A DNA stretch of 64,000 bases from a virus: the IMG/VR virus record IMGVR_UViG_3300037520_002383, positions 1 to 64,000 of that record. The stretch is one strand, 5' to 3'. Each line of letters starts with the position of its first letter. Within the stretch, counting starts at the first letter, position 1. Of the stretch, positions 2,453-57,475 are shown one piece after another. The position numbers and the translations under genes were made by a program. Below the pieces are notes generated by a model. That model saw nothing but the letters and a program-made list of their open reading frames with translations. It ran no database searches and had not been told where the DNA came from.

Positions 2453-2902
2453 TCAAAGATTGTTCGTGAATCCAGTAGCCTTCAGTTCAAGCTCGTTGTT
2501 CCAATGCAGGGCCGTGAAGGTGAAGGTGCCGGTCACCATGCCCCTGGATTCGGCGACAAACGACTGCTGTTGTACTGAACATTCGTCGGCTCGAAAAAAT
2601 ATAGTTTTGTCGCGGCGATTGAGAATCAACAAAGAAAAATAGCGCTCTTCTGGGATTTTTTCGGGCGGCGCAACAATACCACGACCCTCCAGACCACCTG
2701 TAGAGTGACGCCGCAGAAAGCCTACGGTACCCGAGATCTTCATGACCGTCGGCGCTAGTTCCTGCGCATGCATGACGTCAATAGCCATAACTTCGTCCCT
2801 CGGCGTTGCGGAGACAAAGTTGAAGGCCGTAACTTCGCCGAAAGGGTGTCCGTTTACGAAAACCAGCAGTTGAGCGCCGGTTATGTTTCTGGAGGCAGTC
2901 AT
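2453..2902 (-). CDS. Tail tube-like protein (paralog of 52975-53454)
   Basis: ITGAQLLVFVNGHPFGEVTAFNF...ISGTVGFLR parallels IVTGARAKVEI...VGIFTSISY...ISASGWR of the tube protein; 149 aa. Confidence 0.6.
   Translation of the reverse strand: MTASRNITGAQLLVFVNGHPFGEVTAFNFVSATPRDEVMAIDVMHAQELAPTVMKISGTVGFLRRHSTGGLEGRGIVAPPEKIPEERYFSLLILNRRDKTIFFRADECSVQQQSFVAESRGMVTGTFTFTALHWNNELELKATGFTNNL
2456..2462 (-). promoter_or_regulatory. Candidate late promoter CAATCTT
   Basis: 34 nt upstream of the tail fibre ATG. Confidence 0.55.
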
Positions 2903-5900
2903 GTGATGTCATCCTCCTCTTGCGCCGCTGCGACTTCGGCCGTCAAGCCATCTCCACCCCAAACCCTTACGGCATCAGATAGCTTCTGCGAACCAGCCAT
3001 AGGATACCCGGCATTTCCCAGCCCCACATCGTCTGGATACAACACTTTTACATTCAGACCAGGACCGGCGGCGACGGCCGACCGCACGGCAGATTCAGCC
3101 GCAACGCGACCGGCATTGGAGTTCGTGACGTAAAAGGAGCCGCGGGTCTGCGCGTTTTCGGGGAAGCCGGGTGATTGCTGTGACAGCAATGTTACTTTGG
3201 CGCCTACGGCGTACGCATACGGCCAAATATACCGATTGTCGATAGCCAACTCCGTATTCGAAATCCGCCTCAGATAGGGTATAGGGTAGGCGGCGTCTTC
3301 GTAGCCGACCCGGATAGCCAACCAGCCGGGGGCATCGGGGAAGCTGGCGGCGTTAGCTAGCGCCAAGACACCGATCTGGGCATTCTTGGAGATGGCCGTG
3401 GTGATGGTCGACTCCGTTGACGTCAACAGGGGGCTGGCTTTGTCATCCCAAACATATGGACCGATGGCGCGGGCCTGCGCGCTAGCCGTCGTGGTCTTGT
3501 TCAATGTGATTGTGGCGCCGGGCGCCATCTCCGATCGCAGCACGTCCCCCGTTTCTAGACCCGATATCGTAAAGGACGTCGACGATGGAACCGACGTAAC
3601 GCGATGAACGCCATTGACGCGATGCGCCGGCGCAGCGTAATCGGAACCGGGTACGAAGACAGCCGTCACTGTTTGGGGCGTGAATGAAGTGCTGGTGAGA
3701 GAGCTGTTGCCGGTAGTGGCGTCTTCGCCACCGAAAAAGAAGCCGACGCCGCCGCTGACCACAGCTACGCCGTAGTCATAAGCAAATCCCGCCGTGGCAA
3801 ATCCTTCTGCGTTACTGAACGGAGCCAAGCTCCATTTGCCCGTTGGAATATCATAGACTTCAGTGGGGAAAATGGAGCTGGTAGCGAATGATCCTGCTTG
3901 ACGCATGCCGCCAATAACATAAACCTTAGTTCCGATTCGGAAGACCACCGGATTATATCGGCCATAGCGCAAACGCCCAGCCGGCGTCCAGGCGCCAGTG
4001 GCGACATCAAACATTTCCACCTCGTCTACCAGACGAGATACGGTTTCATTAGCTAATACGCGCCCAAACCCCCCAATCGCCAGTGCCCTACCACCGCCGA
4101 TGTCCACCACTCGATGCCGAAAGCGCGCTACGGCCATTCGTCCGGGGGTTGTCCAGGTGGGGGTAATGAGATTGCTGGCGAAGTTCGTGGAATCCAGTGG
4201 CGTCGTACCGAAACCACCACACCACAAGGCCGCAACGGGTTTTGTGGCATCGTCGATAGCCGACAAAGCACAGCCGGCATGTTCACTGCGGGCATCGGTG
4301 TCAGTGTTTGATAGGCCGACGGTAGACGCCGCGGCCACAGCCAGACCGTTCACGGCGGGATTGAAAACCGAGATGACGTTGGTGCGCGAAGAAACTGTGT
4401 CTTGGCCGCCAATAATCAATACTTGTTGACGCTGTGAGGCATCGAGAATCGTCAGCGCCAGAGGGAAGCGGCAGGCGGGGTGGGTGGTATTGGCGACAGT
4501 CAAGAAGCTGCCCACATTCGCGCCGCCAGTCGCCGACAAAAAGAGACGAGCGTTTTGTGTGAAAGTGGGGGTATTAGCGGTCTGGCCGCAGACAATAAAC
4601 GCGCCGATCCCTAGAGACCCTCTGTAGGATGAGGCACCTGAGTACGCGGCGGCATATCCGGTATCGGCGGTGGAATAGTGATTGTAAGAATAAACGGGAC
4701 GAGATGCCGCATCCAATGTGGTGCCCAGAAAGCGCATGACCTTGTAGGTAGAATAATAGGTCGCGGTGGTCCGACCGCCGTGAATGAAGATGTCGCCGTT
4801 ATTCAGCGCTACACCGGCGGCGCCGGTGCGAGCAACAAAGGAATCTAGCGAGCGTACGAAGCTAACGAAAGATTGACGGCTGGCGCCCGTGGTGCCCGTA
4901 GCGCCGGCGGCGCCATCGATGGGCACGGTCGTCAGGGGGTGGGTATATGAGGTCGGCCGAACATTATCCAGCGTAACGAAATCATTGGCCTGTAGGCCGT
5001 GAGCGACACCCGTAGTTACGGTTAGGGATCCGTTGGGGCCCAGGGTTGCCGAGAGATCGCCGAGAGCCGATGTCGTCTGTGCCGGCACATAAGCAGCCTT
5101 ATAGGCTTCTCGCGTTACGACTTTTGTAGTCGTTGGCAGATGCAGACGAATGGCGTTGCCGACGCCAGAGACCATGGCGCCGTTACTCGATGGCGCTGTG
5201 TAGGTAGCTCGATATACTTGCAGGTCATTGGCAGCCACCGACAAGGGACCGGCTTGCGTTACGGCCACGGGATTCACGATCGTCAGGGTCTGCAGATAAG
5301 CGCTTCCGGTCCACGTCACGGTAACGTCAGTGATTTCAAATGTTCCGCGATTGGCAACGTTCAGGTCGCTATCGCGTGCCAACAAATAATCACCAACACG
5401 CACATTCATCGCCGGAGTGCTGGTTGTGATGGCCACCGCCGCCTTATCGTTGCCTGGAAGCGAAATGGCATAAGTGCTGCCGGCGACAACGTTGGCTACC
5501 AACTCCGGAAAACGAAGTGGGTATTGAGCCAGGCCACCGACGACACGGATCTTAGAAGCCAACCCCAAGGTGGGAGAGTAAATCGAAACCCGATACAGTC
5601 CCGTGTCGGGGTTCAGGTTTGTCGCCGCCCAGGCCCTGCTGCCGAGCTGACGCAACTGACGGCTGATAGACGCCGCGACTTCGATGGCCTGAGCCTGACC
5701 AATAATAGCGAAATCGGCCGTAGAAAACACAATAGGATATATTGTGCCGTCTATATCAATCTGCAACTGCATCTGATCACTAAGCGCGTATGGTGCATCA
5801 ACTTGAGTTTGAATGACGGCCCTAACGGCGCTACTGCCATAGAATACTTCTAAAATCTCCCAGATCGCCTTGTAGGTGATTCTGTCTGATGACAGGCGAA

Positions 5901-6507
5901 TGGCGAGTTCACGGAAAACGTCGTCGCGCATCCCCACGGCCGCGGGGCGAGTCACGCCGAGTTCGCGCGCCAAACGATCCAGGTACTTGCCTTCGGCCGT
6001 ACTCAAAAACATCTGATCCCAGGCGCCGCGAGCCGTATCCTGTAGATGCTGGTCGCCACGAGACAGCGCATATACCAACGCATCCCAGCCCTCACCCACG
6101 AAAGCCGGCGACAAAAACTGCCGCAGCACGGTTTCGGGCGTGACATCCTCCGCCCCGCCATTTCTCAGATCCTGAGGCTGTGTCGATACGACACTAAAAA
6201 TAGCCACTCGCGAGGATGCATCTAAAGCCTCACCCGTCACCGCCGTAACGCCAGAAGTCAGCAGACTCCAGCTACCGGCAGCCAAGAGGTTGGATGCAAA
6301 CAGCGTAAACGCCCGAGGATCATCGGGAACAGCTACGACGCGAATGATCCGCGACGATCCGGGGCCCGACAACTGATAGTTGACGGGATTCAAGGCATCG
6401 TTGCTGTTGACATCAGAAACGGCCTGAGCGGCGGCGCTGAATACCACGCGGATGGCCGCGGGGCCAACCGATGATACCGTTTGAATCGCAAAAACAGTCA
6501 TGGCCAC
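2899..6507 (-). CDS. Baseplate wedge protein (P2 gpI/T4 gp7-like N-terminal part) with Kelch-type beta-propeller
   Basis: FLSTAEGKYLDRLARELGVTRP...DDVFRELA wedge motif; Kelch repeats such as ALAIGGFG...VEMFDVATGAW and VYVIGG...TEVYDIPTGKW; directly downstream of baseplate J. Confidence 0.75.
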   Translation of the reverse strand: MAMTVFAIQTVSSVGPAAIRVVFSAAAQAVSDVNSNDALNPVNYQLSGPGSSRIIRVVAVPDDPRAFTLFASNLLAAGSWSLLTSGVTAVTGEALDASSRVAIFSVVSTQPQDLRNGGAEDVTPETVLRQFLSPAFVGEGWDALVYALSRGDQHLQDTARGAWDQMFLSTAEGKYLDRLARELGVTRPAAVGMRDDVFRELAIRLSSDRITYKAIWEILEVFYGSSAVRAVIQTQVDAPYALSDQMQLQIDIDGTIYPIVFSTADFAIIGQAQAIEVAASISRQLRQLGSRAWAATNLNPDTGLYRVSIYSPTLGLASKIRVVGGLAQYPLRFPELVANVVAGSTYAISLPGNDKAAVAITTSTPAMNVRVGDYLLARDSDLNVANRGTFEITDVTVTWTGSAYLQTLTIVNPVAVTQAGPLSVAANDLQVYRATYTAPSSNGAMVSGVGNAIRLHLPTTTKVVTREAYKAAYVPAQTTSALGDLSATLGPNGSLTVTTGVAHGLQANDFVTLDNVRPTSYTHPLTTVPIDGAAGATGTTGASRQSFVSFVRSLDSFVARTGAAGVALNNGDIFIHGGRTTATYYSTYKVMRFLGTTLDAASRPVYSYNHYSTADTGYAAAYSGASSYRGSLGIGAFIVCGQTANTPTFTQNARLFLSATGGANVGSFLTVANTTHPACRFPLALTILDASQRQQVLIIGGQDTVSSRTNVISVFNPAVNGLAVAAASTVGLSNTDTDARSEHAGCALSAIDDATKPVAALWCGGFGTTPLDSTNFASNLITPTWTTPGRMAVARFRHRVVDIGGGRALAIGGFGRVLANETVSRLVDEVEMFDVATGAWTPAGRLRYGRYNPVVFRIGTKVYVIGGMRQAGSFATSSIFPTEVYDIPTGKWSLAPFSNAEGFATAGFAYDYGVAVVSGGVGFFFGGEDATTGNSSLTSTSFTPQTVTAVFVPGSDYAAPAHRVNGVHRVTSVPSSTSFTISGLETGDVLRSEMAPGATITLNKTTTASAQARAIGPYVWDDKASPLLTSTESTITTAISKNAQIGVLALANAASFPDAPGWLAIRVGYEDAAYPIPYLRRISNTELAIDNRYIWPYAYAVGAKVTLLSQQSPGFPENAQTRGSFYVTNSNAGRVAAESAVRSAVAAGPGLNVKVLYPDDVGLGNAGYPMAGSQKLSDAVRVWGGDGLTAEVAAAQEEDDIT

Positions 6508-6510
6508 CCT

Positions 6511-9500
6511 TTACTCGCCGATGATAGCAACTGTGATGTCTTGTTCGGCGTCCAAAACGAAGGCCTTTTCGTAGGGCTGTACGGCAATCAGATCGTTATC
6601 GCCGTTGTAGCTGGGGGAGACAATAGACACAGCCAAAACGCCATTCACACTGGCGGCAGCAGATACGATATCGCTGATTACCACTGACTTGCCGACGCCA
6701 AAGGTATTGATGGCGCCCGCCACTGCCGATCGCACATAAGCTATAGCATCCTGCGGCAACACGCCAAGTCGTAGGCGAATGGCGAGGGAGACCTGAATCC
6801 TCTTGACCAGGGGGCCGCTGATGGCGATGTTGGTACCCGCAGCCACAACTCCCGGATAGGCCTCTGGTTCGCGCAAATCCCCCATGACAACTCGATTGAC
6901 TTCAGCCAACAGGCCCGTATTATACCGGTAAGCATCGATTCCTGGAACGATGCTAGTATCAAAATCCAGTTTATCGAGTGAAGCCAAAACAGCGCCATAA
7001 ACATCGGAAATCTCGTAATCACCTGGGATTGAACGAGAGTATGTGATTGCGCCCGTGGTGTCCGTGTCATGCACCATGTCCATCTTTACATCCACCAACA
7101 AAGGGTTGGTGGCATGAGGAGAAATGGATTCGATTCGACCGATATGTCGGACTTTGCTGGCGGCAATGAATCGATACTTGGAGGCGTTGAGTCCGAGGGC
7201 AACGGTCGGCGTCGTTTGCGCCACCCACGCCCTTTCGGAGGTGTCAAGTTGAATGGATTGTGTAGTATAGCTAACGCTTTGAATGCGCCAAAGTCCTTTA
7301 TTTGCCACACCCCATTCTTCACCATCAATAGCAAAGTAATCACCAGCCATAGGACCACTGGTAACGTATCTAATGCTGACGGTCTTACCGTCTTCTTCGA
7401 TGGCATTGGGGTTTTCGAACCACACGGCGTATGCGCCGGCTGTATTGGAGACAGCCGAGGCGATTATCCTGAAAGTGCCGGTATTTGCGGTTGAGACAGG
7501 CGAAGATCCGCCTTGAGTGATATTGATCATTTTTTCGGTGGCGCTGGGGGGGGTCGTAAAGCCAGCCATCATCACGAAGCGCCCTTGTTTACGCACCTGG
7601 ATTGTAGTAAGGGAGGTCGTGGCCAGTAATCCAGCGCTGATAATGCTGGTGCCGCCAAACGTCAAGTTGCCGGCAGCGTCGTTTGCCGTCAGCGTATTAT
7701 CGATCGCCAGCGCGCGACTAGGCGCTGCGGCATTGGCGACTTCTGCCATCATACCGGCGCTAAAGCCCAGAGACTGATCGGCGGGGATGGACACGACTAC
7801 CGGCCCTGACGATGCATTGAGGGCCGTTAGGGAGCCAACGATTGACGCCGACGCCGCGTTTGCCGTTCCCCCCTGGATCTGCACGGATCCGCCGCTACCG
7901 GGTGTGACGCTAGCGATCTGAGGTGCGCGGCCGTTAGCGGCCAGCCCCACCTCTGCCACCTGCGCAAGGCCGGAAATACCCAGGGTATTGAGCCAGCGCA
8001 CAACGTCGATGGCCGTGACGGGGGCAATACGGATCTCTTCGTTGATCCAATCGCTGTTGCTGGCTAACGCCGCCGTGATCGGGGCCTTGAACGCCAACGT
8101 GTAGTTGCCGGCCAATGTGCCGGGGCTCGTGGTCGTAGAGACCCAGTTCACGCCATCGATAAGTGCTGCGTACTCTACAAGCTCATTGACGGTACCGGGG
8201 CTTTCGTCGCGCGACGACAGCGCGATTGTGCCTGAACCCGTGCCCGTAACTGTAGCGGTTACGGGGCACGTCGCGCCCAAGGCATTCACTGAGGCAGCAA
8301 TCGCCGTCGCCGTGTTCGCTGTTCCATCTATGGGGAAAATAGAGAGATTCGAAGCAGAACCAAGCGATTGATACGTCAATGTCGTACCGGGTGTCCCCAG
8401 ATTGTCATCGTAGTCGGCGTACCCTTGAATGTAGCGATCTCCGAGATTGTTGATGCGGAAGCTGCGATTGCGCCAGGCCAGTGGAATGAAAGTAGAGTCC
8501 GCGAGTCGAATGATGTCACCGACGATAACCGAACCGGTGTTCAGACGCCGCTCAACGGTGTCCGTCGAGACGCTGCCGATGTTGGCAATGGGCCCAGCCG
8601 CCGTCCCGGCTTCGGCATATGTAATGGTCGTTGCTCCGACAGTCGTGATGACTTTCAGACCCGAAGAAAAGCTGCCCGAAGTCGAAGCTAGATAGATGAC
8701 GTCACCGGCAACCAATCCGTGATTGCTTACATTATAGAGACCCATGGTTAGGCCGAGTGTCAATGTGACGTCAGTGGTAGTCCGTGAGGCGCTGGTCACG
8801 GGAAAGCCGCAACAGATGGTCAATACGTCGAGGCCGCCGACTGTATTGTATCCATAGCCGATTCGCGTTGAGTCCCTGGGAAGATAGGTGTCGTCGACTC
8901 GCGCCGCGCCAGAAGGCAGCCTCACCGATACGAGGTTGTAAGCACGCAAGGCGGCTTGGGTCGGGCGATTATCCACGGTTACCTGAAGCGGCTGCGACGC
9001 TGCCAGAGGATATGCGTAACGCAATCGCGCCCAGTCGCCATCTGCACCAAATCGCTTCCAGCGCCAGAGAATACGCTTGTTGGCGTCGGCGCTGTGCGTC
9101 AACAGACGCGACTTCATGTACACCGCAAAATCATTGAAACTATAACCAAGACCGAAAGCGCCGGTAAGGCTTAGGTTGGAGTTGTCGGCATCCACCATGT
9201 CATTCGATGCACCATAGGTGGCGGTGGTGGGCTTCAATCGTCGATACATCGGCACAACAAAACGTTTGGAATCGATATCGCCGTCGATTACCGTCGTCAT
9301 CGTATCGTTGGGGCCAATCGCGTAGGCGCTGGCAAGATAAAGGGCATCGGACTGCGCCCAGAAGCGAGGGGCAGATGAGCGCAGCGTCAGGTCGGTATTG
9401 GTGACCGTGGTGATGCCCGTGATCATTGAATGAAAATCAGAGTTGTTGCCCCAACGCGGAGTTGTGCCAACAAAGTTTGGTGTTTTTTCGCCGACAACAA

Positions 9501-12202: not shown

Positions 12203-12209
12203 AAGATTC
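12203..12209 (-). promoter_or_regulatory. Candidate late promoter GAATCTT
   Basis: 50 nt upstream of baseplate J. Confidence 0.6.
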
Positions 12210-14903: not shown

Positions 14904-14910
14904 AAGATTG
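14904..14910 (-). promoter_or_regulatory. Candidate late promoter CAATCTT
   Basis: 70 nt upstream of ATG 14834. Confidence 0.6.
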
Positions 14911-18753: not shown

Positions 18754-18782
18754 TTGACGATGGCCTGGGACTATGCTACCAA
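18754..18782 (+). promoter_or_regulatory. Sigma70-type promoter, extended -10 (weak)
   Basis: TTGACG-N17-TACCAA preceded by TG; ATG 7 nt after. Confidence 0.45.
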
Positions 18783-18787
18783 GATTG
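18781..18787 (-). promoter_or_regulatory. Candidate late promoter CAATCTT
   Basis: 40 nt upstream of the spike gene. Confidence 0.6.
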
Positions 18788-23873: not shown

Positions 23874-23902
23874 TTGACCTCATAGCCGGGGCCTGCTACA
23901 AG
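23874..23902 (+). promoter_or_regulatory. Sigma70-type promoter, extended -10 (weak)
   Basis: TTGACC-N17-TACAAG preceded by TG. Confidence 0.45.
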
Positions 23903-23906
23903 ATTG
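23900..23906 (-). promoter_or_regulatory. Candidate late promoter CAATCTT
   Basis: 79 nt upstream of hub ATG 23821. Confidence 0.6.
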
Positions 23907-45300: not shown

Positions 45301-45307
45301 AAGATTG
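45301..45307 (-). promoter_or_regulatory. Candidate late promoter CAATCTT
   Basis: 112 nt upstream of the tape measure gene. Confidence 0.55.
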
Positions 45308-48255: not shown

Positions 48256-48936
48256 ATGAAGACCGCCACCGCCGACCTCGCTATGACCGTCATGTTCAGC
48301 CGCAGCAAGGAGCGCCGCGAATGGCAGGAGGCCGGCTTCTTCCCCACCGACGACGACACCCAGATCGCCATCAAGGCGCTGGAGTGGGCGCGCGAGACCT
48401 TCGGCGCCAAGACCGCCGAGGAGCGCAGCGACTTTGAGCACAACATGTACGTCGCCAGCAAGGGCAACGTCATGAACCTCAAGAACAGCGGCCTCGCCGC
48501 CTACATCGTCGCCGGCTACCTCAAGGAGCAGGAGCGTCTGGCCCGCGCCAAGGCCTTCCGCGGCCGCGACATGACCGCCAGCCAGCACTTCGGCGTCGTC
48601 GGCGAGAAGCTGATGCTGCAGGCCGTGGTTGTGGGCGTCAAGAAGATCGAGGGCTTCTACGGCACGACGACGATCATCAAGCTGCTGACCGAAGACGGCA
48701 ACGTGGGCGTGTGGTTCGCCAGCAACGCCCCTGAGGCAATCGAGAAGGCTATGGAGACTGAGGAGCCGACGACCTTCACCCTCGTCGCCACCATCAAGGA
48801 CCATGATGCCTATCAAGGTATCAATCAGACCCAGCTGACGCGCTGCAAGCTGGTTGATGTCGCCGACATTGAGAAGGAAACCAAGAAGCTGGCCAAGGAG
48901 AAGGCGAAGAAGATGAAGGTGGCTAACGCCGCATAA
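48256..48936 (+). CDS. C-terminal half of the apparently split protein (OB-fold-like)
   Basis: SQHFGVVGEKL...GFYGTTTII...GNVGVWFAS...ATIKDHDAYQGINQTQLTRCK. Confidence 0.75.
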   Translation: MKTATADLAMTVMFSRSKERREWQEAGFFPTDDDTQIAIKALEWARETFGAKTAEERSDFEHNMYVASKGNVMNLKNSGLAAYIVAGYLKEQERLARAKAFRGRDMTASQHFGVVGEKLMLQAVVVGVKKIEGFYGTTTIIKLLTEDGNVGVWFASNAPEAIEKAMETEEPTTFTLVATIKDHDAYQGINQTQLTRCKLVDVADIEKETKKLAKEKAKKMKVANAA

Positions 48937-48963
48937 TCCGCGAGACTCCCGCCAGCAGCAAAG

Positions 48964-48985
48964 AGCCGCCCGAGGGCGGCTTTTT
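48964..48985 (+). terminator. Intrinsic terminator
   Basis: AGCCGCC-CGAG-GGCGGCT-TTTT. Confidence 0.85.
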
Positions 48986-48988
48986 ACT

Positions 48989-49017
48989 TTGTCTTCTGGC
49001 TATGGGCGTGCTATCAC
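48989..49017 (+). promoter_or_regulatory. Sigma70-type promoter, extended -10 (weak)
   Basis: TTGTCT-N17-TATCAC preceded by TG. Confidence 0.45.
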
Positions 49018-49051
49018 TAGAACAACAAAGCCGTCAAAGGGGAGGCAGGAC

Positions 49052-49651
49052 ATGAGTAAGAAAAAGACTTCCATCCGAAAGGTCATCATCGTCAAAGACC
49101 TTTCATTCAATCTCGTTGTAGCAATGGAACGTGAGTTGTTGTACTATAGCGATCAGATTTTATACAATGCCGCAAAGCTCGCCGCACTCCGCGAGGACCT
49201 TGAGACGAAGCTGATGGCCTGGGAGGAGCTGGCGGAGATGGCGATTCGACACCAGGCCCTGCATCAACAGATCCTCGGCAGCATGCACATGGTTCAGGAG
49301 GAGCAGAAGGAAGTCGACGAGAAGGATCGCGAGAGCGCCGACAGCCGCAGCCTCGTCTGCCAGTTTCCTACCGAATACTTTGATGTCATTGCCCGAGCCT
49401 TCAATAGCCCCTTTCTGGCTCTGGAATCCAGCGATCATGAAATGAGCTATTGGCGGCACCTCAGGGAATCCGACCAGGAGCGGCAGGCGATGGAGGAACA
49501 GCATCGCATTCTCGTGAAGTGTCTGAAGGAAGGAGTTCAAAGGCAAGTTGAGGTAGAGGAAGACGAAGAAGACGAAGAAGACGAAGAAGATGCCCCTGAT
49601 GCCTCGTTTGCCCGCCTCGCCACAATGCCCATGCCCAGAATCCGGCATTGA
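49052..49651 (+). CDS. Helical protein with acidic tract
   Basis: GGAGG SD; (EED)n encoded by a GAAGAAGAC repeat. Confidence 0.7.
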   Translation: MSKKKTSIRKVIIVKDLSFNLVVAMERELLYYSDQILYNAAKLAALREDLETKLMAWEELAEMAIRHQALHQQILGSMHMVQEEQKEVDEKDRESADSRSLVCQFPTEYFDVIARAFNSPFLALESSDHEMSYWRHLRESDQERQAMEEQHRILVKCLKEGVQRQVEVEEDEEDEEDEEDAPDASFARLATMPMPRIRH

Positions 49652-49677
49652 CAACAGGCGCATATTTGCTGTAGAAT
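49648..49677 (+). promoter_or_regulatory. Early promoter, leaderless
   Basis: TTGACA-N18-TAGAAT-N6-ATG. Confidence 0.85.
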
Positions 49678-49683
49678 GCGGAC

Positions 49684-49998
49684 ATGAACACCAAGATAAT
49701 GCACACGGCGTTTGCAAACTCCATTGCCGGCTTCGCCATTCTCTTCCATCTACAGAAACATGGCCCCGATTCTCGAACCAATATCATCGATGCCGTATCG
49801 CGGCGGCTGGCGGGTATGGATCAGACGTCGATCGCCGATGTGACGCGCGTCACATCGGCGGCCATTCAGTTGGCTATCGACTGTCGCTACGTCGATGGCC
49901 TTAGTGGCTATCGCCTGAGGATCACAGAAGAAGGCGCGGCGATGTCAGAAAAACTGCAGTTTTTTTATGCTAGCATTTTGAAACCGACCCAACCTTGA
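49684..49998 (+). CDS. Putative winged-helix protein (leaderless)
   Basis: YRLRITEEG wing-like motif; ATG 6 nt after TAGAAT. Confidence 0.65.
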   Translation: MNTKIMHTAFANSIAGFAILFHLQKHGPDSRTNIIDAVSRRLAGMDQTSIADVTRVTSAAIQLAIDCRYVDGLSGYRLRITEEGAAMSEKLQFFYASILKPTQP

Positions 49999-50039
49999 AA
50001 ATATGGCGGCGTTTTGCCGCCGTGAAAGGGGTGGGTATC

Positions 50040-50756
50040 ATGCAGCGACTGTGGTTTGCTCTGTCACTTCTCTCGACATCTCCTTCCCTAGATCACGAAG
50101 TGCCTTTGGTTCCGCCGCAGGCTGCCGCAACGGCAGCCGCCGCCGCCGCGCCGCCGGTCATTGACGCGAGTCCGCAGCTGAAGTCTTTGGTAATCGTGGA
50201 TCGACCCACCAAGGTGGCTCAAGTCATCTTGGATGTTGCGCTGAATGACCGAACGACAGAGGCGCTGGAAAATACCTTGGAGTCGCTTCCCGCCGAAACT
50301 GAGTTTGTCGTGCTGGTGATTGACAGCCCCGGCGGTTTGTTGACGGCCAGTCGCGATATCTCTCGTATCATCGAAAGCAGCCACAAAAAAATCGTCTGTG
50401 TTGTGGATGGCCTGGGGGCTTCCGGCGCTTATTATCTGCTGCAGAGCTGTGGTCTACGATTGATGACGGCGCGCAGCAATCTCATGCTTCATGAGGCATT
50501 CGTTCCCAGCCCCCAGGAGCCGGAGGCCAACGAGGCGCTGGCACTTTCTGCCGTCAACTCGTCCATGGCCTGGCAGCAATGTCATCGCCTGCGCATCTCC
50601 ATTCCCGAATGCCATGCACAATACAGCAACGGACGGGAGTGGTGGCTGACGCCGCAAGAGGCCGTGGCCGTGGGTGCCGTCGATGGCATTGTCGAGACGC
50701 CGATGCAGGTGATGCTGGATATAAGCGGCATAAAGCCCGAGGCGACCAATAAATAA
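50040..50756 (+). CDS. ClpP/crotonase-fold serine protease with signal-like N-terminus
   Basis: IDSPGG, VDGLGASGAYY (Ser), NLMLHE (His), WWLTPQEAVAVGAVDGI. Confidence 0.8.
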   Translation: MQRLWFALSLLSTSPSLDHEVPLVPPQAAATAAAAAAPPVIDASPQLKSLVIVDRPTKVAQVILDVALNDRTTEALENTLESLPAETEFVVLVIDSPGGLLTASRDISRIIESSHKKIVCVVDGLGASGAYYLLQSCGLRLMTARSNLMLHEAFVPSPQEPEANEALALSAVNSSMAWQQCHRLRISIPECHAQYSNGREWWLTPQEAVAVGAVDGIVETPMQVMLDISGIKPEATNK

Positions 50757-50807
50757 GCCTTTGGCGGATGCTATTCAGCTACCTGACGGCAACACAGGAG
50801 GCCTTGC

Positions 50808-51140
50808 GTGGTGATGACTAGCATCTTTGGTTGGCTGACATTGAAGCTGCGGCAACTGAGACACCTGCTGTCTCCTCAGCTGCCGTCGCTCTTACCCGTG
50901 GCGGCCGTAGCACAGTTGCCGCTTGTGAAGTGGAATGAACGCTGTGAACGAGAGGGCGATGTCGTGCGTTCCTGCTCTGTTGTGGAGGCTGTGGCGCGAC
51001 AACGAGCCGCGGCGGCACGGCACGGTCACTGGTATGTCACAGATGAAGAGGCGCTGGAGGACTTTCTGGTGGTCCACTGGGCTTGGATAGAGAACCAGCT
51101 AGCGCCCTCAAAGCCTACCGACCCAATCCCTGGCCTCTAG
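50808..51140 (+). CDS. Hypothetical protein
   Basis: AGGAGG SD; overlaps the convergent gene. Confidence 0.55.
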   Translation: MVMTSIFGWLTLKLRQLRHLLSPQLPSLLPVAAVAQLPLVKWNERCEREGDVVRSCSVVEAVARQRAAAARHGHWYVTDEEALEDFLVVHWAWIENQLAPSKPTDPIPGL

Positions 51141-51326
51141 CGTCGTATGGCAGTTGCCGACTTTTTCCCAGTAATCGTCGTTCCAGGCCGTGGCGGGCTT
51201 CATCTCCCAGCAAGTGAAGGAGCCGCCAAGGAATGAGCGAATGGCCATGCGCCGCCGCCCTTCGTCGCTGCACTGATGCACTTCAACTGCACTGAAGGCC
51301 ATTTCCATCATCTCGCGGTCACTCAT
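51108..51326 (-). CDS. Small hypothetical protein
   Basis: MSDREMMEMAF...; overlaps the end of the holin-like gene. Confidence 0.5.
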   Translation of the reverse strand: MSDREMMEMAFSAVEVHQCSDEGRRRMAIRSFLGGSFTCWEMKPATAWNDDYWEKVGNCHTTLEARDWVGRL

Positions 51327-51567
51327 CGTCTGCCGCCGCCTTCGACTGTCGCCGGCCGCCGACGAACTTGGCTCCAACATTCGATCCACTGTAAATCGCC
51401 AATGCCCCCAGTTGGCCGCCGACAAAGACTTCGTAGTTGGCGGCAAAGGCTGGGTAGTGAGCCGACAAGAGCCCGCCGCAGAGAATCAACACGGCTGTAC
51501 CGACGGCGAACCACATTTTGCGGCTTTTGACACCGCCATCAAACGCAGATGACTTGACGTTGGCCAT
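51319..51567 (-). CDS. Putative holin
   Basis: KSRKMWFAV start of TM1, two TM segments, charged C-terminus; 82 aa. Confidence 0.6.
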   Translation of the reverse strand: MANVKSSAFDGGVKSRKMWFAVGTAVLILCGGLLSAHYPAFAANYEVFVGGQLGALAIYSGSNVGAKFVGGRRQSKAAADDE

Positions 51568-51584
51568 GGCCGCACTCCATCGGA

Positions 51585-51992
51585 TTATTTGCTGATTGCC
51601 GCCCAGAGAGCGTCACCAAACTTAGACGAAAAGGTACCGACAACGCCGCCGACGATGAACACGATGCCGGCGATGACCTTACGCTTGAAGGCGGCGATTG
51701 CGTGATCGCTTTCTTCCTTGACTTTTTCCAGATCCGCAACGCGCGTCGTCAAGGCCCTCAGGCCGACGTCCACGGACGCGAAGCCTTCGCGCGTCTTGTC
51801 GCCCACGCCCGCAACCATCAACTTCAGTTGCTGCAGGTCACGATAGACTTCTTCCTGCGACTCCTGTACATGCTGCATGTCGCCTTGCAATCGCGACAAG
51901 ATGGCCTGCGTTTCCGTGCCCTGTGACTCCAGACTCTGAATCCGTGTCTCATGAGCCTCTAGGAAAGAAGCGGCAGTTACGTTAGGTGGCAT
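51585..51992 (-). CDS. Coiled-coil protein with C-terminal TM (lysis-cassette-like)
   Basis: Heptads plus VIAGIVFIVGGVVG; AATCTT 33 nt upstream. Confidence 0.6.
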   Translation of the reverse strand: MPPNVTAASFLEAHETRIQSLESQGTETQAILSRLQGDMQHVQESQEEVYRDLQQLKLMVAGVGDKTREGFASVDVGLRALTTRVADLEKVKEESDHAIAAFKRKVIAGIVFIVGGVVGTFSSKFGDALWAAISK

Positions 51993-52024
51993 TGCTGATC
52001 CCCCAGCTGCTGATAGGCTACCCA

Positions 52025-52031
52025 AAGATTG
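52025..52031 (-). promoter_or_regulatory. Candidate late promoter CAATCTT
   Basis: 33 nt upstream of the lysis-like cassette. Confidence 0.6.
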
Positions 52032-52033
52032 TT

Positions 52034-52828
52034 TCAGCAGCCAACGCAGTCAACGCAGCTGTCCATGACGCGATCGGCGATCGGCATCAGACTTTGGCGT
52101 AGATCTTCTAGACTGCCAAGGTTGTCGATGACCGCGCCATTGCGGCTGCAGAAATCCAACATCTCTGGCGTCTGCTGATCCTTCTCCGAGGCATGGCTGG
52201 GGGTAGTAGAGACGAGACCGGGGCGGCGAATGAGGAGAGGGAAGCCACGGGACTTCTCGGCTTCGTTGAAGAAGCGAGCGTCCGAAAGCACGATGACGTC
52301 GAAGTCTGAATCCGCGACCTGACGCTTGAGGCAGTTGATCCAGACATCGGCATCGAGCGCACGGCCCCACTCAGTGCCGAGAGTCTGCAGGGCTCGACGA
52401 GCACTAAGCCCGCGTTGGCGTTGCAGCTGACGCCGGCAGTCGACCATCTCCCACGACCACGGCACCTCGGCCATCAGTTCGTTGAACCAATGGTCCAGCT
52501 CTCGACGCGCCCTGAGCCAGAACTCGGGTGTGGCGTCGGGCCAGCACTCGCCGACGAAGGCGCTGCCGCAGACCTTCAGATATTCGCGAGCCGACTCCCA
52601 GGCCTCCATGTTCAGATAGGTCGGCATTTCTTCTTCACGCGCCGATGACGGGCCATAAACATTCTCAAAGCTGAAACCAAAGACACCGCGACAAAAGCGC
52701 TTGATGGGCGTCGCGAAGGCGGCTTGAGTCACTCTCAGGCCGCGTTTGTCCAGCAACTCGCAGAAGATGTTGGCGGCCGTTGACTTGCCGGCACCGGCAG
52801 TACCAATCGGAACGATGAGAAGGGTCAT
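52034..52828 (-). CDS. Deoxynucleoside monophosphate kinase (T4 gp1-like)
   Basis: GTAGAGKST, AFATPIK, RRALQTLGTEWGR, SDARFFNE, HASE. Confidence 0.9.
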   Translation of the reverse strand: MTLLIVPIGTAGAGKSTAANIFCELLDKRGLRVTQAAFATPIKRFCRGVFGFSFENVYGPSSAREEEMPTYLNMEAWESAREYLKVCGSAFVGECWPDATPEFWLRARRELDHWFNELMAEVPWSWEMVDCRRQLQRQRGLSARRALQTLGTEWGRALDADVWINCLKRQVADSDFDVIVLSDARFFNEAEKSRGFPLLIRRPGLVSTTPSHASEKDQQTPEMLDFCSRNGAVIDNLGSLEDLRQSLMPIADRVMDSCVDCVGC

Positions 52829-52853
52829 GATAAGCGCAGCCTCCTTGCGGCCG

Positions 52854-52882
52854 ATGATAGCACACACATCGACAATAGGCAA
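52854..52882 (-). promoter_or_regulatory. Sigma70-type promoter of the dNMP kinase gene
   Basis: TTGCCT-N17-TATCAT with TG extension. Confidence 0.6.
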
Positions 52883-52901
52883 CTATCACGCGCTTCTGCA
52901 G

Positions 52902-52936
52902 AAAAACAGCGGCCCTCCGGTGTAGGAAGGCCGCTG
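52902..52936 (-). terminator. Terminator after the tail tube gene
   Basis: CAGCGGCC...GGCCGCTG stem followed by TTTTT on the minus strand. Confidence 0.7.
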
Positions 52937-52974
52937 CTCAAATGACGCTAAGCGTTAGGCTGCTGACGTAGACG

Positions 52975-53454
52975 TCAAGGCAATCGGCTTGCCGTGCCAT
53001 CTTCAGACAAGTCGTTATCGGCCGTCTCGTCGCTACAGAGGATGCCCATAAAGCTGAAGCTCTGCTCAGTCAACTGTCGGCTAGCAATCGGCGTCTGGTA
53101 GCTCGTGGGGCGAACGTTCGAAATCTTCGCAATCACCTTGTCGGGGTTCTGCCGATCGGTGATCACGAACTGCAGGTATTCATGGGTCAAAATCTCAGCC
53201 AGGGTCGGGAAAAGGGCCTGGACATGGGGCCCTTGATCGATGATACGCCAACCGCTGGCGCTGATGCTCACTGGCTCCTGAGCCGTGTACTCGATGTCAC
53301 GCGGCGCGTACGCCCCCAGAGTATATACGGGCGTAGCGTCATAGGCGACGCCATAGCTGATGGACGTGAAAATACCAACGGTCACTTTACGGCCATCATC
53401 GCTCGTGATCTCGACCTTCGCCCGCGCACCGGTTACGATCTTTGGAGGTGCCAT
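52975..53454 (-). CDS. Tail tube protein
   Basis: 159 aa, directly after the sheath gene; strong SD; beta-rich pattern. Confidence 0.8.
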   Translation of the reverse strand: MAPPKIVTGARAKVEITSDDGRKVTVGIFTSISYGVAYDATPVYTLGAYAPRDIEYTAQEPVSISASGWRIIDQGPHVQALFPTLAEILTHEYLQFVITDRQNPDKVIAKISNVRPTSYQTPIASRQLTEQSFSFMGILCSDETADNDLSEDGTASRLP

Positions 53455-53503
53455 GTTGATTTCTCCCTTTTATTGAATGCCCTTAGAATCTCGGGTGGCG
53501 GCA

Positions 53504-56050
53504 TCACGCCGACTGTTGAACCTGTGAGACGACGAAGCTGATGGGAATGAAGTAAATCGCACCCGCCAGCTTGATCTCAAGGCTAACGAGCATCACCGGT
53601 CCCGCAATCTGAACGACAGCATTCTTGTAACCCTTTGGGGCATCGCTGCTGGAGGCAATAAGCTTCAATCGCGAGAAGTCGGCCATGATGCTGTCCAGCG
53701 TCGCCTTCGCAATGGCCGCCGAGACATCGGCGGTCGATTGACCGAGGAAGGCGATCTCCATGCGCTGAGCCGTCGACAAGGCAATCAGATCCGCGGCATA
53801 CGTCGCCTGGATGCTGTTGTAGACGAAGTTGTTGTCACGGCTGTAGGTTGTCTGATCGCTGACCCAAGCGAATCCACCCGTGGACTTGCGGGCCATCACC
53901 AAGAGACCCGAAGTCAACGCCTGCTCAGTCGCCGTCAGGTCGCGATCGTCGAAGTCGCGCGCCGCCTGCAATACGCCACTGCAGTTGACGCCCTTGTTGA
54001 CAATCGCGCGATAGAAGCCGGCGGCCTGCATGCCGGCGGCCAACACCGAGGCCATCCAGGGCTGATACTGGGTGATGACGCCGGCGCCCGAAACCAACTT
54101 GACGTCTTGGAAGGCCAATGAGCAACGGTAGGCAGCCAGGTTGGCTGCCGACTCACGCGCCGCAGCAAAGGTCGTGCGCTTGCTCAGGAAGCCCTGGCGG
54201 TGGCGACGGCGCTTCAGCGTCGACATCTTATTGACATGCGTCTTGACCACGGCATTCAAGCCATCGATGGTGTACGTCGAAGTTGCTTCCGTAAGGCCAT
54301 CGGTGATGTCGGCGCCGACGGCATCGCGGCTGAAGAGGGGGACGATGAAGTTCGTCGACACTTTCTCCAGGGCGTCAATCGCCGACGTCAAGTTGGCCGA
54401 CGTCGTGCCGCCTTTAGTGCCACCGGCCAGGAAGCCGGCGGCTTGCGTCGCCGGCAATCCAGCGTTGGCGCGTACCACCGTTCCGCTGGTGTTCTGCAAC
54501 TGCACCAGAGCCGATTCCTCGCTGATCTTTTTGAAGAAATCGTAGGCGTCAACCTTGATGCGGCCGGCGCGCGTGCCATGCGTCGTGCAGATGCCAATCG
54601 TCGAAACGCGATCCAGCGCCGTAGAAGGCAACTGCCCGACAACCGCCGACTCGACGGAAGCAGAGTAGCCGGTTTGCGTATTGATATAAGCCGCCAAGTC
54701 TGCAACCGTAGCGAAGTCACTGAGGTTCAGGGTCAGGTTGGAGCCAGAACCACCAGACACCGTCGCCGTAAATACGCCGGCGCTGGAGATCGTCAGGAGG
54801 GCCAAGGTGCCGGTATAACCGACATTCAAGACCACGCGGCCGCCAGACACCAAATCCTCGGAGATACCATCGGACTGACGACTAAGCGACAGCTGGGCGA
54901 TGTACTCGGCAACCGATGTCAATCGAGCCGAGGCGGTGGACTTGGAAATCCAAGTCACTGGGGTGCTCGTGCCAAGCACATAGGCACAGCGCTCCAGCAA
55001 GTCCGTGCCGGTGGTCAACTGAGCAATCTCGATGACCTTGCCGACGCCGTCGATTGGGTTACCAGCCTCAAGTGTGATGACCGCCGGAGAGTACACAACC
55101 AAGTTATTGGCGGGAGTACCGCCGACGGCAACCGAAGCGACATCGACGCAGTTGACTGGTCCGCCAACAACAGCGCCGGTCTGACCCGCATCCGAAAGTT
55201 TGGTGGCCGAGATGCTGTTCGATGAGGCGGCGGTGACGACATACGCACCGACGTTGTCGCCCGAAGCACCGCCGGCGCCCGTGAGGACCGAAGATACGCC
55301 AATCACCAACGTATCTCCTGCCGTCGGCACAACAGGAAAAGTCGCGGTCGTAGTGATGGTGATGTTTCTGCTAGTGCCAGAACCGCCAACAACACCCAAC
55401 GCCAAGTTACCCGTCGTTGGGTGGGCTACGCGATCGACGCCACCGGTCGCCAAAGGCCCGGCGAGACCGTTGACTGTCGACACAAACGCCGTGGGTGTAG
55501 TGTTGGCAGTCAACGCCACCGAGATGGCGGCACCGCCATTGACGCGCACTTCAAAGTTCACCGTTCCCACGCCGGGAATATAAGTAAACGAGCCCGTCGT
55601 CGGCAGGCTCTCGGCCTGCGAGGCCAAAAGCTGGCTCTGGATGAGGTTACCCAAGCGGCCATACGACTTATCGGCAATCACGCCGTAGGTCGTAGCGGCA
55701 AAGTTCACCAGGTTGCGCGTGGCCTTCGTCGAGGCGTTGGTCTTGACGAGGATGACGCGCGACGGTCCGCCGCTGATGTTGATGTCGTTGGCCGGCGAGG
55801 CGATTGCGCGCATGGCATCGACCAAGTTGCCGCTGCGGTACTTGGCGACGACTGCCGCCACCTGATCGACACCGAAGGCGTTTGCCTCCAGGTCATCTTC
55901 CAATGACCAGTCGGGACCGGCATCGGCTTCGCCTACCAGCGTCACGACGCCATTGGCCGCCAAGCCGCTTGTCTCTGCCGCCACCTTGACGGTAGAATAG
56001 GCGCCGGGGATGATGAGAGTGCCTTCGGTGGTGGTGTAAGAGAGAGCCAT
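53504..56050 (-). CDS. Contractile tail sheath protein
   Basis: IIPGAYSTV...VVTLVGEADAGP N-terminus; C-terminal SDQTTY...NSIQATYAAD, AIYFIPISF. Confidence 0.9.
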   Translation of the reverse strand: MALSYTTTEGTLIIPGAYSTVKVAAETSGLAANGVVTLVGEADAGPDWSLEDDLEANAFGVDQVAAVVAKYRSGNLVDAMRAIASPANDINISGGPSRVILVKTNASTKATRNLVNFAATTYGVIADKSYGRLGNLIQSQLLASQAESLPTTGSFTYIPGVGTVNFEVRVNGGAAISVALTANTTPTAFVSTVNGLAGPLATGGVDRVAHPTTGNLALGVVGGSGTSRNITITTTATFPVVPTAGDTLVIGVSSVLTGAGGASGDNVGAYVVTAASSNSISATKLSDAGQTGAVVGGPVNCVDVASVAVGGTPANNLVVYSPAVITLEAGNPIDGVGKVIEIAQLTTGTDLLERCAYVLGTSTPVTWISKSTASARLTSVAEYIAQLSLSRQSDGISEDLVSGGRVVLNVGYTGTLALLTISSAGVFTATVSGGSGSNLTLNLSDFATVADLAAYINTQTGYSASVESAVVGQLPSTALDRVSTIGICTTHGTRAGRIKVDAYDFFKKISEESALVQLQNTSGTVVRANAGLPATQAAGFLAGGTKGGTTSANLTSAIDALEKVSTNFIVPLFSRDAVGADITDGLTEATSTYTIDGLNAVVKTHVNKMSTLKRRRHRQGFLSKRTTFAAARESAANLAAYRCSLAFQDVKLVSGAGVITQYQPWMASVLAAGMQAAGFYRAIVNKGVNCSGVLQAARDFDDRDLTATEQALTSGLLVMARKSTGGFAWVSDQTTYSRDNNFVYNSIQATYAADLIALSTAQRMEIAFLGQSTADVSAAIAKATLDSIMADFSRLKLIASSSDAPKGYKNAVVQIAGPVMLVSLEIKLAGAIYFIPISFVVSQVQQSA

Positions 56051-56085
56051 TGTGTTTTGCCCCTTGCAAAGCCGTTACGGGTCCG

Positions 56086-56092
56086 AAGATTC
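56086..56092 (-). promoter_or_regulatory. Candidate late promoter GAATCTT
   Basis: 36 nt upstream of the sheath gene. Confidence 0.65.
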
Positions 56093-56108
56093 AGTCACTT
56101 GTCGAAAG

Positions 56109-57437
56109 CTATTTCTTGTCTGCCGCACTAATCATTGCCGCCGACGACTTAGGCTTCAGTTCGCCTGCGGCCCCTCCCTGATTCTTCGGTTCTTCCGCCA
56201 CAGTCGCGGGAGTAAAAGCTGATTCAGCCGCCAAGGCGCGTGCGGCATCTTCCGGCGAGGTACCCTTCTTGGCTTTTGCTGCCATCGCCATAATCGTCTC
56301 CGCGATTCCGGCCTTCATCAACGACGGCGGCGAGATACGCTTCGGCGCGGCAGAAGGAAGAGACGCGCTGGGGCGCGACGATGCGGGCGGCGGCGTGGGC
56401 GGCTTGGGTTTGGCCGTCGATGGAGGTGCGGTCGGCTTCTTGCCGCTAGGCGGCTTGGCTTCCGAAACGCCGGCTTTTTGAAGCTCATCCTTGTTGACGG
56501 TCGCCCAGGCCCTCGACTCGGCTTCCTTCGGCGAGACGCCCTTGGACTCGTAGGACTCCTTGATGTGGGCAGCCTGCCGCTTTTCCTTCTCCGTGTGCGA
56601 GCCGGGCTTCTGCAGCTTCTCAGCCTTTTTGGTTTCAGACCAGGCAGCCTTACGGATTTCTTCCAGCTTACGGCTGTTGAGCTGACCGCCGCTGCCCGTC
56701 TTCTTGTCCGTCAGGTCTTTTGACTTCTTGTCGCTGGGCAACACGGAATCCTTGTCGGCGGCATCAGGCACCGCCTTTTGATCAGGGACGGTCTTGCGGT
56801 CCTTCAGAGGCGCCGGATTCATCTTCGGCTCCTCCTTCTTGACCTCAGACTTGCCGGCGGCCATCTCGCCACACTTCTCAAGCGGCTGATGCATGTCGCC
56901 GCATTTCTGGCAGGCCTCGGCCTTCGCCAGACCCTGGTCACCCTTCATGTGCTGAAGGGCATACTGCGAGTTACGCCACATAATCCAGTCCAGATGCTGA
57001 TTGAAGGCCTGGTGGGCGGGGCTTTGGCCCGATGATTCCATTTGTCGGCGCGACAAGGTTTCGATGTCTTTTCCATCGGATCCAATGTGGTGAACATCGA
57101 TGGTTTTGAACTTGTTGGGCTTCATATCGTGATTCACCATCAGCTTCTCACCCGCCTGCCGGGCTTGGGGAGAAAGAAGGTGGCTGTAATCGAATGACTC
57201 TTTGCCCTCGGCAGCCGGCATGGGTTTGCCAGAAATCGGTTCGGGACGCGCCGCTGCTTGTTCGGTATGAGCCATCAGCCGGCGATGCAGATCCGCGTAC
57301 GGATCGCCTTCGGCCTTGCGAAGTTCACGCTCACGCAGATCCGCATAGTGCCCTTCCAGATCTTCAATGGTCTTTTTGAGCAGTGGCACGAGCCCCTGGC
57401 GAAGCTGAACTACCAAGTCCTGAGGGTTTTTAGGCAT
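56109..57437 (-). CDS. Lys/Pro-rich late protein with repeated [LIV]xK[A/C/E] motifs and a ChaB-like segment
   Basis: HTEKEKRQAAHIKESYESKGVSPKEAESRAWATVNK; GGAGAGG SD; AATCTT 32 nt upstream. Confidence 0.65.
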   Translation of the reverse strand: MPKNPQDLVVQLRQGLVPLLKKTIEDLEGHYADLRERELRKAEGDPYADLHRRLMAHTEQAAARPEPISGKPMPAAEGKESFDYSHLLSPQARQAGEKLMVNHDMKPNKFKTIDVHHIGSDGKDIETLSRRQMESSGQSPAHQAFNQHLDWIMWRNSQYALQHMKGDQGLAKAEACQKCGDMHQPLEKCGEMAAGKSEVKKEEPKMNPAPLKDRKTVPDQKAVPDAADKDSVLPSDKKSKDLTDKKTGSGGQLNSRKLEEIRKAAWSETKKAEKLQKPGSHTEKEKRQAAHIKESYESKGVSPKEAESRAWATVNKDELQKAGVSEAKPPSGKKPTAPPSTAKPKPPTPPPASSRPSASLPSAAPKRISPPSLMKAGIAETIMAMAAKAKKGTSPEDAARALAAESAFTPATVAEEPKNQGGAAGELKPKSSAAMISAADKK

Positions 57438-57468
57438 CGTACTACCTCTCCAAAAGCGATTTAGGGCA

Positions 57469-57475
57469 AAGATTC
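57469..57475 (-). promoter_or_regulatory. Candidate late promoter GAATCTT
   Basis: 32 nt upstream of ATG 57437. Confidence 0.6.

Follow-up and report, generated by a model that had tools for sequence, protein, structure and literature searches.

In phage T4, late transcription depends on the sigma factor gp55, which reads the sequence TATAAATA at the −10 position together with the co-activator gp33 and the sliding clamp gp45. Phages phiKZ and AR9, which have their own multisubunit RNA polymerases, likewise use short single-element late promoters near the transcription start. Here we analysed a candidate element of a similar kind, the hexamer AATCTT, in a stretch of viral DNA of 64,000 bases (hereafter the window) which forms the first part of a single viral contig (IMG/VR record IMGVR_UViG_3300037520_002383, G000 in our set; 82,924 bp, 58% G+C). 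The completeness of the contig is 51% (CheckV), and about half of the phage genome is missing from it. A first-pass annotation of the window had taken [C/G]AATCTT on the minus strand for a phage-specific late promoter that restarts the pieces of a broken tail operon. We consider it likely that AATCTT is the −10-type box of the late promoters of this phage, and that its reader is a phage sigma factor missing the part which recognises a −35 element. The nearest cultured relative is the Myxococcus phage Mx1 (169,621 bp; 50% identity across the whole sheath protein), which has the same layout as the window, with structural genes on one strand interrupted by islands of oppositely oriented small genes. 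Relatives of the contig in IMG/VR range from closer to more distant than Mx1, and two of them, both uncultured, are used below, namely G001 (131,625 bp, sheath identity 80%) and G002 (182,279 bp with terminal repeats, rated complete, sheath identity 47%).

In the mechanism that we propose, an extended box, G-n-C-n-[C/G]-AATCTT, would serve as the −10-type element (−12 to −7) of a phage-specific promoter class driving the structural genes of Mx1-like phages. The box would act alone, without a −35 element, and transcription would most likely start at the purine 7 nucleotides (nt) downstream. The leaders predicted in this way are about 12-105 nt long in this contig and carry a Shine-Dalgarno sequence, and those boxes of the relatives that lie exactly 6 nt before an ATG (N6 boxes) would give leaderless messages. 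The most likely reader would be the host core RNA polymerase together with a phage-encoded, divergent sigma70-family protein in which region 4 is cut short after its first helix (regions 2 and 3 are present, region 4.2 is not), whose gene would lie in the missing half of the genome. The closest analogue of such a system is that of T4, which it would resemble in its single, short and near-invariant −10-type box without a −35 element in front of head, tail and baseplate genes, in a (here predicted) reader that is a phage sigma70-family protein unable to read a −35 element, and in the many separate late promoters scattered among oppositely oriented early genes. It differs in the word itself, which is AATCTT and not the T4 sequence, and in the sigma, which reaches from region 2 through region 3 to the first helix of region 4 in about 340-365 amino acids (aa) and is matched by phrog_351 and weakly by Sigma70_r2, whereas T4 gp55 is much smaller and consists of region 2 only. 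Also, the messages of many relatives would be leaderless. By this comparison the Mx1-like system appears to function like the T4 late system without being a member of it. With phiKZ and AR9 it shares short single-element late promoters close to the start, but no RNA polymerase subunit is annotated in Mx1 or was found in the contig with Pfam and PHROGs, and the relatives carry a sigma-type factor instead.

Genes were modelled with a heuristic caller that combines codon-usage log-odds with a ribosome-binding-site score, which gave 102 genes in the contig, and each of the 4096 hexamers was counted in the 90 nt upstream of genes and compared with its genome-wide frequency. AATCTT was the top hexamer upstream of the contig genes (12 copies against 1.3 expected), and when sense copies within 100 nt upstream of the 102 gene models were counted over the whole contig, 12 were found for 1.6 expected. 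With only the minus-strand genes considered (−90 to −1) it came first again with 12 copies against 0.65 (P 7e-12), while the plus-strand (early) genes were enriched instead for TTGACA, CTTGAC and TAGGCT/TAGATC. The same procedure placed AATCTT first in G001 (14 against 0.81) and in G002 (19 against 1.36), and second in Mx1 (12 against 1.92) after the overlapping word CAATCT. In all four genomes the enrichment is on the strand of the structural genes, and the pooled count is 57 for 4.74 expected. A Markov-1 model of the same upstream windows gave an expectation of 0.91 for the contig and 0.9-1.7 over the genomes. The enrichment upstream of late-type genes that had been suggested for the window is therefore specific to strand and position, and it holds in the rest of the contig, where four further intergenic boxes are present past the window (contig positions 66674, 68919, 72867 and 80235), as well as in the three relatives. 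Conservation was further seen at the sheath gene. Taking the related loci that contain the sheath start (a ninth locus, L007, lacks it and was excluded), AATCTT lies 20-38 nt ahead of that start in 8 of 8 cases; seven of these loci have a sheath identity of 47-49% and flanks unrelated to those of the window.

It may be noted that the total number of AATCTT copies in the window is at chance level (20 against a dinucleotide-shuffle mean of 19.2), which by itself would suit an origin of the pattern by chance or as a by-product of base composition or codon use. The distribution of the copies is another matter, as the minus strand has 17 of them and the plus strand 3, and [C/G]AATCTT, with 14 copies, is confined to the minus strand. 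The chance explanation is refuted by the counts and has practically no probability left: the word is at the top of all 4096 hexamers in three genomes and second in the fourth, its pooled excess stands against the low Markov-1 expectations given above, it is kept at orthologous genes across 47-50% protein identity, and it is again the top pooled hexamer in 28 further independent loci (see below). The copies outside the nine sites discussed next, which had been estimated at about seven, are in fact 11 in the window (8 minus, 3 plus).

All nine sites named by the first-pass annotation are present with C or G directly before the box (Table 1), and the distance of 32-112 nt which it claimed between box and gene agrees closely with the measured distances to the start codons. 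Three of these distances depend on the choice of start. For the 14904 and 45301 boxes a TTG start gives the shorter value of the table, whereas for the 18781 box the start at 18741 was taken from homology: the 'spike' protein is similar to its counterparts in G001, G002 and Mx1 from residues 77-94 of the long open reading frame (ORF) onward, and Met88 corresponds to 18741. This ATG is the probable true start of the spike gene, and only with this start does the box count as upstream of the gene. The association with island borders was also upheld, since the late blocks to the left of plus-strand islands open with the boxes 14904, 18781, 23900 and 45301, and the fifth late block (46960) has no AATCTT at its head but TGCTAT instead. 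As the islands, with their own TTGAC-N17/18-TAGGNT promoters, split the tail and baseplate blocks from each other, each block would need a box of its own, and four of the five have one. A late timing of the box-led genes is inferred from their identity, that is sheath, baseplate J and tube initiator here, and portal and tailspike in Mx1.

The anatomy of the box was studied on the 57 family sites pooled above. C or G directly precedes the box in 51 sites, T in 6 and A in none; a G is found five letters before the box in 35 of the 57 sites and a C three letters before it in 34. No single-mismatch variant of AATCTT was clearly enriched, the best being AATCTA (3.2x) and AATCTC (2.1x), and hence all six letters appear to matter. 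As regards a second element, the information content over the 57 sites is about zero from −45 to −12, matches to TTGACA at a spacer of 16-18 nt are no better than in shifted controls, and no conserved structure or second element was seen in the flanks of the box. An extracytoplasmic-function (ECF) type of promoter with GAAC as its −35 element was considered and rejected, as only 2 of 12 sites in the contig have GAAC or GAAAC directly before the box. Scans for sigma70 promoters, covering 1-20000, 20001-26000 and 40001-60000 of the window, place no minus-strand sigma70-like site at the nine boxes or in about 130 nt upstream of them, in line with the earlier statement that these sites have no sigma70 −35/−10 on their strand. 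The canonical −35/−10 arrangement is thus absent from the nine boxes, the single nuance being a TTGACT 17 nt upstream of the 52025 box.

The closest bacterial counterpart of such a box would be the −10-only or extended −10 promoters of sigma70. Likenesses to these are the presumed position from −12 to −7, the A at the second and usually the T at the sixth hexamer position (equivalents of −11 and −7), as in TATAAT, a purine at +1 with a pyrimidine at −1, and the same geometry as in the early promoters of the contig itself (TTGAC-N17/18-TAGGNT-N6/7-ATG). Against this, positions 1, 3, 4 and 5 of AATCTT differ from TATAAT, so that it scores 3 of 6 and fails the sigma70 scan; the TG at −15/−14 of the extended −10 is replaced by G at −17, C at −15 and C/G at −13; and host −10 elements are far more degenerate than the box. 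At the sixth position some variation is allowed. Its letter, the equivalent of T−7 of sigma70, is the most tolerant one of the box and not obligatory, because Mx1 also uses AATCTA and AATCTC. These variant boxes of Mx1 were seen in the region of 39290 and 42215 and at gene 18321, which is upstream of the capsid genes.

The placement of the box relative to the transcription start can be estimated from its spacing. Counting AATCTT-N6-ATG without any gene model, we found this arrangement for 13 of the 46 copies on the late strand of G002 and for 5 of 55 in Mx1, where the genes at 36563, 75289 and 121405 are among those with an N6 box; the other spacings from 0 to 20 nt have 0-3 copies each in G002, and Mx1 shows a second peak of 5 at N16. 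In the contig, 11 of the 32 early-strand copies of the sigma70-type TAGG[CA]T have an ATG at N6 or N7, the classic arrangement for leaderless genes. The N6 spacing of AATCTT is thus equal to that of the sigma70-type −10 before leaderless early ATGs, which would put AATCTT at −12 to −7. The seventh nt downstream of the box is a purine in 46 of the 57 sites and T in only 1, and with the N6 sites excluded it is still a purine in 36 of 47 (P 2e-4); the sixth nt downstream is C in 31 of the 57. For this contig, the placement at −12 to −7 would follow from the relatives and from the purine at the seventh nt. The boxes of the contig lie 19-111 nt from the start codon, with ribosome-binding sites of the GGAG or AGGGG type in the leaders, so the same box would serve leadered messages here and leaderless ones in relatives.

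A sigma-type protein that could read the box is present in the relatives. In Mx1 it is WNM70309.1 (335 aa), annotated as a 'putative RNA polymerase sigma factor', whose gene adjoins a helicase gene and lies upstream of the terminase. It has homologs in G001 (E 2e-58) and G002 (E 2e-66), and at a threshold of E<=0.001 the family counts 732 proteins, of which the 120 best are mostly 338-382 aa long, on contigs of up to about 200 kb; no homolog was found in a 28%-complete fragment. Against Pfam the protein gave only a sub-threshold match to Sigma70_r2 (E 9e-4), and against PHROGs it matched phrog_351, 'RNA polymerase sigma factor' (E 2e-10). Profile searches against PDB found RpoD with E 1.3e-7 (3-sequence profile) and SigA with E 6.7e-6 (18-sequence profile). 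In these alignments the match extends from region 2 as far as the helix that corresponds to residues ~551-562 of E. coli sigma70 (regions 2 through 4.1) and ends at profile position 336-337 of 341-343, opposite residue 281 of 332 of the Thermus aquaticus SigA fragment. Past this point 5-8 phage residues are left, compared with about 50 in the solved sigmas, which we take to be the helix-turn-helix of region 4.2, the reader of the −35 element. Judged from these alignments, the phage sigma appears to end before that helix-turn-helix. A sigma without a −35 reader and a promoter without a −35 box fit each other. The AlphaFold (AF2) model of the sigma has a predicted local distance difference test (pLDDT) score of 78.7, and the Foldseek matches listed for it are all sigma chains with a probability of 0.99-1.00, at a template modelling (TM) score of only about 0.2-0.4.

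The co-occurrence of the sigma with the box was examined in 59 sigma-encoding loci of IMG/VR, of which 54 were analysed (at least 8 kb long and not duplicating G001 or G002; three shorter loci were dropped). Upstream of same-strand genes these 54 loci have 72 sense copies of AATCTT for 21.4 expected. In the 28 loci whose sigma is at least 45% identical to that of G002, AATCTT is the top pooled hexamer (44 against 9.3); it is still enriched in the 14 loci with a sigma of 38-44% identity (17 against 4.8) and is not enriched in the 12 loci below 38% (11 against 7.2). At some loci, such as L057, the variant AATCTA ranks first among the hexamers.

Several observations weigh against the reading of AATCTT as a sigma-read late promoter. 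The gene models and the start codons come from a caller that is heuristic and unvalidated. The box is missing from about 7 of the roughly 20 late-strand genes that are preceded by a gap of 28 nt or more. In Mx1, which is the only cultured member, the sheath gene is preceded by AATCTA, the next gene downstream, probably the tube gene, by AATCTC, and gene 18321 by AATCTA or AATCTC. No N6 box, on which the placement relies, is found in the contig itself (0 of 23) or in G001 (0 of 26). Also, no sigma or RNA polymerase gene was detected in the contig with Pfam, PHROGs, tblastn using the Mx1 sigma or a homolog search. The earlier suggestion that a phage sigma or RNA polymerase is encoded outside the window therefore stands for Mx1, G001 and G002, where the gene lies outside the region that matches the window, and does not find support in this contig; at a completeness of about 51%, the absence is uninformative. 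Finally, sigma and box are linked by correlation, in phages related to each other, and this does not set the sigma apart from other factors that these phages have in common. This last point, together with the lack of the sigma gene in the contig, would suit a promoter element read by something else, either a host alternative sigma, many of which exist in myxobacteria, or a holoenzyme recruited by a phage activator; and as most genes of these phages are without known function, other factors could exist. Yet the box stays unchanged in phages from many samples, with a G+C content of 41-65%, and this speaks for a phage-borne reader; the match between the sigma end and the missing −35 described above is in favour of the phage sigma; and a short asymmetric word of 6-7 bp, held at a constant distance of 6 nt from leaderless ATGs, has the footprint expected for a −10 element and not that of an activator site. 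We therefore regard such another reader as unlikely, though deserving some weight.

RNA evidence is available from one run, X1 (an aquatic metatranscriptome; 5% of sampled words), in which four contigs of 155-202 nt match 55355-56547 with an identity of at least 99%, where the beginning of the sheath gene and the last part of the gene upstream are located. The contig at 56004-56185 runs across the sheath box and the start codon, which has to be added to the points against a start at this box; it reflects either read-through transcription or DNA in the library. Contigs of this kind cannot show transcript starts, and we draw no verdict on the promoter from them. RNA that contains the box may thus exist, which would suit another reading, in which AATCTT works in RNA, as an endonuclease processing site or as a translation or stability signal 5′ of late cistrons. 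Strand specificity and a position upstream of cistrons would be expected for such a signal likewise, and a cleavage at a fixed distance could in principle yield leaderless messages. We hold this to be very unlikely, as the boxes 14904, 18781, 23900 and 45301 follow oppositely transcribed islands, where a late transcript arriving from upstream would not be expected unless a promoter were present, the N6 spacing is the same as that of the sigma70-type −10 of leaderless early genes, the positions 6 and 7 downstream prefer a pyrimidine and then a purine, and the flanks hold no conserved structure or second element that we could see. Taken as a whole, the late-promoter reading held in those parts that could be tested, that is the enrichment, the lack of a −35 element, the position at the heads of blocks and the sigma in relatives.

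AATCTT would not be the only promoter class of these phages. The word TGCTAT(CAT) is enriched upstream of minus-strand genes (5 against 0.47 in the contig, 7 against 0.60 in G001), one of them the dNMP kinase gene, and the 28 sigma-bearing loci show a similar enrichment of GCTATA and CGCTAT. TGCTAT looks like an extended −10 (TGnTATnnT) and may represent a middle promoter class. In G001 the word ahead of the sigma-containing operon is TGCTAT and not AATCTT, which fits a regulatory cascade. GCTATC was considered as an upstream partner of the AATCTT box and was rejected, since its spacing varies from 12 to 25 nt; it is read as part of the separate TGCTAT class. The plus-strand genes of the early islands have TTGAC-N17/18-TAGG[CA]T (or TAGAAT) with the ATG 6-7 nt past the −10, a geometry which implies that early messages would be leaderless and made from host-type sigma70 promoters. 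In G002 additional upstream words are enriched on both strands (TCGATA and CGATAG; TAAGGA and GTAAGG), with one example before the helicase-sigma operon, and these may be yet another promoter class.

Table 1. Boxes, genes and other promoter motifs of the window (d, distance in nt from box to start codon in the relative named)
Feature	Position	Strand	Target, or basis of assignment	Context and counterparts
CAATCTT	2456..2462	minus	33 nt to ATG 2422, 807-aa distal tail/fibre-like gene	Overlaps last codons and stop of upstream 149-aa gene; predicted transcription start near 2449; G001 (d=33); TAATCTT ahead of Mx1 gene at 139197
GAATCTT	12203..12209	minus	49 nt to ATG 12153, 1880-aa baseplate-J-like gene	Baseplate-J-sized genes also box-preceded in G001 (d=53), G002 (2265 aa, d=10) and Mx1 (d=36)
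CAATCTT	14904..14910	minus	69 nt to ATG 14834 or 24 nt to TTG 14879, 863/878-aa tail-tube-initiator/baseplate fusion	Heads late block left of island 14921-16619; Mx1 'baseplate assembly protein' gene at 121405 has CAATCTT-N6-ATG
CAATCTT	18781..18787	minus	39 nt to ATG 18741, 'spike' gene	Heads late block left of island 19152-21836; G001 (d=41)
CAATCTT	23900..23906	minus	78 nt to ATG 23821, 662-aa hub-like gene	Heads late block left of large early island; homology to Mx1 and G002 starts at residues 56-57; G001 (d=69)
CAATCTT	45301..45307	minus	111 nt to ATG 45189 or 42 nt to TTG 45258, 846/869-aa tape-measure-like gene	
CAATCTT	52025..52031	minus	32 nt to ATG 51992, 135-aa gene	Weak PHROG 'hemolysin' match; G001 (d=32)
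GAATCTT	56086..56092	minus	35 nt to ATG 56050, 848-aa tail sheath gene	Predicted start near 56079
GAATCTT	57469..57475	minus	31 nt to ATG 57437, 442-aa gene	G001 (d=31); Mx1 gene at 37603 (d=29)
TAATCTT	60112..60118	minus	77 nt to ATG 60034, 138-aa gene	Within 3′ end of upstream 994-aa gene
Tail sheath gene	53504-56050	minus	phrog_279	848 aa
Baseplate-J-like giant gene	6511-12153	minus	Baseplate_J match	1880 aa
Tube-initiator/baseplate fusion gene	12243-14879	minus	Pfam/PHROGs	
TGCTAT	before starts 52828, 46960, 6501, 63030; past the window, contig 81165	minus	Upstream hexamer enrichment	
Early sigma70-type promoters	before ATG 28561, 33858, 34174, 35694, 37337, 39048, 47460, 26939, 38069	plus	TTGAC/TAGG[CA]T geometry	

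Some entries of Table 1 need a remark. The Mx1 gene at 121405 is taken for the counterpart of the initiator fusion gene from gene order, without alignment. The TAATCTT at 60112 is possibly a weaker or internal box. Upstream of the 57469 box and after the gene 58000-59607 there is a strong terminator-like hairpin on the minus strand (57991-57953, 18-bp stem and T run). Two late-strand CAATCTT copies are located inside the large plus-strand early island (34107-34113 and 27825-27831, both minus). The first of these is 42 nt before the ATG of a 111-aa minus-strand ORF (33729-34064) which overlaps plus-strand genes, and the two could be antisense or internal late promoters or could be there by chance. 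With respect to the gene content, only few genes of the contig are recognised by Pfam and PHROGs; apart from those in the table they include a Kelch-repeat protein on the minus strand of the window, and PIN-PhoH and a Clp-like protease, beside small unknowns, on the plus strand. At the left end of the contig the 807-aa fibre-like ORF (1-2422 of the window, minus) overruns the sequence, and the right end is just past the ThyX gene, short of the region that holds capsid, portal, terminase and sigma in Mx1. Past the window, at 72876-78934 of the contig (minus), the gene of a 1322-aa protein with an N-terminal NUDIX and a central GNAT domain precedes that of a 697-aa protein, for which the match is PI3/PI4-kinase-like; these genes are on the structural strand and are syntenic with the 'NUDIX hydrolase' and 'kinase' genes of Mx1.

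We found no description of the AATCTT box in the published literature. The genome announcement of Mx1 is without promoter analysis (PMC10720576), and the available passages of a preprint on myxophage CRISPR hold nothing on promoters. In the accessible part of PMC5587285, where the T4 late consensus TATAAATA is quoted, AATCTT occurs only inside an unrelated consensus.

For the phage of the window, the point of interest is that the box would drive leadered messages and restart the scattered blocks of tail genes, which would explain how tail and baseplate genes lying among oppositely oriented islands are switched on jointly. Three candidate promoter classes can be set side by side in this way, the early sigma70-type TTGAC/TAGGNT (leaderless), a possible TGCTAT class and the late AATCTT. 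For the family, we put forward only tentatively, as a possibility that we think somewhat doubtful, that a large and almost wholly uncultured Mx1-like clade runs its whole structural programme from one invariant box by means of a −35-independent 'three-quarter' sigma, with leadered messages here and leaderless ones in relatives. If this is true, and if the sigma needs neither a co-activator nor a clamp, the two would make a minimal, portable and orthogonal sigma/promoter pair, and the family would offer a natural experiment in the switching between leadered and leaderless late translation. The combination of a short invariant box with a sigma that has no −35-reading domain would be a second, independent example of the logic of T4 gp55. 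This pairing of sigma and box is directly testable in the laboratory system of Mx1 and Myxococcus xanthus. As an aid to annotation, the box would help to locate late transcription units, and the correct start codons, in relatives known from metagenomes, and it may provide a testable regulatory code for a widespread and nearly unstudied phage family of which Mx1 is the one cultured member.

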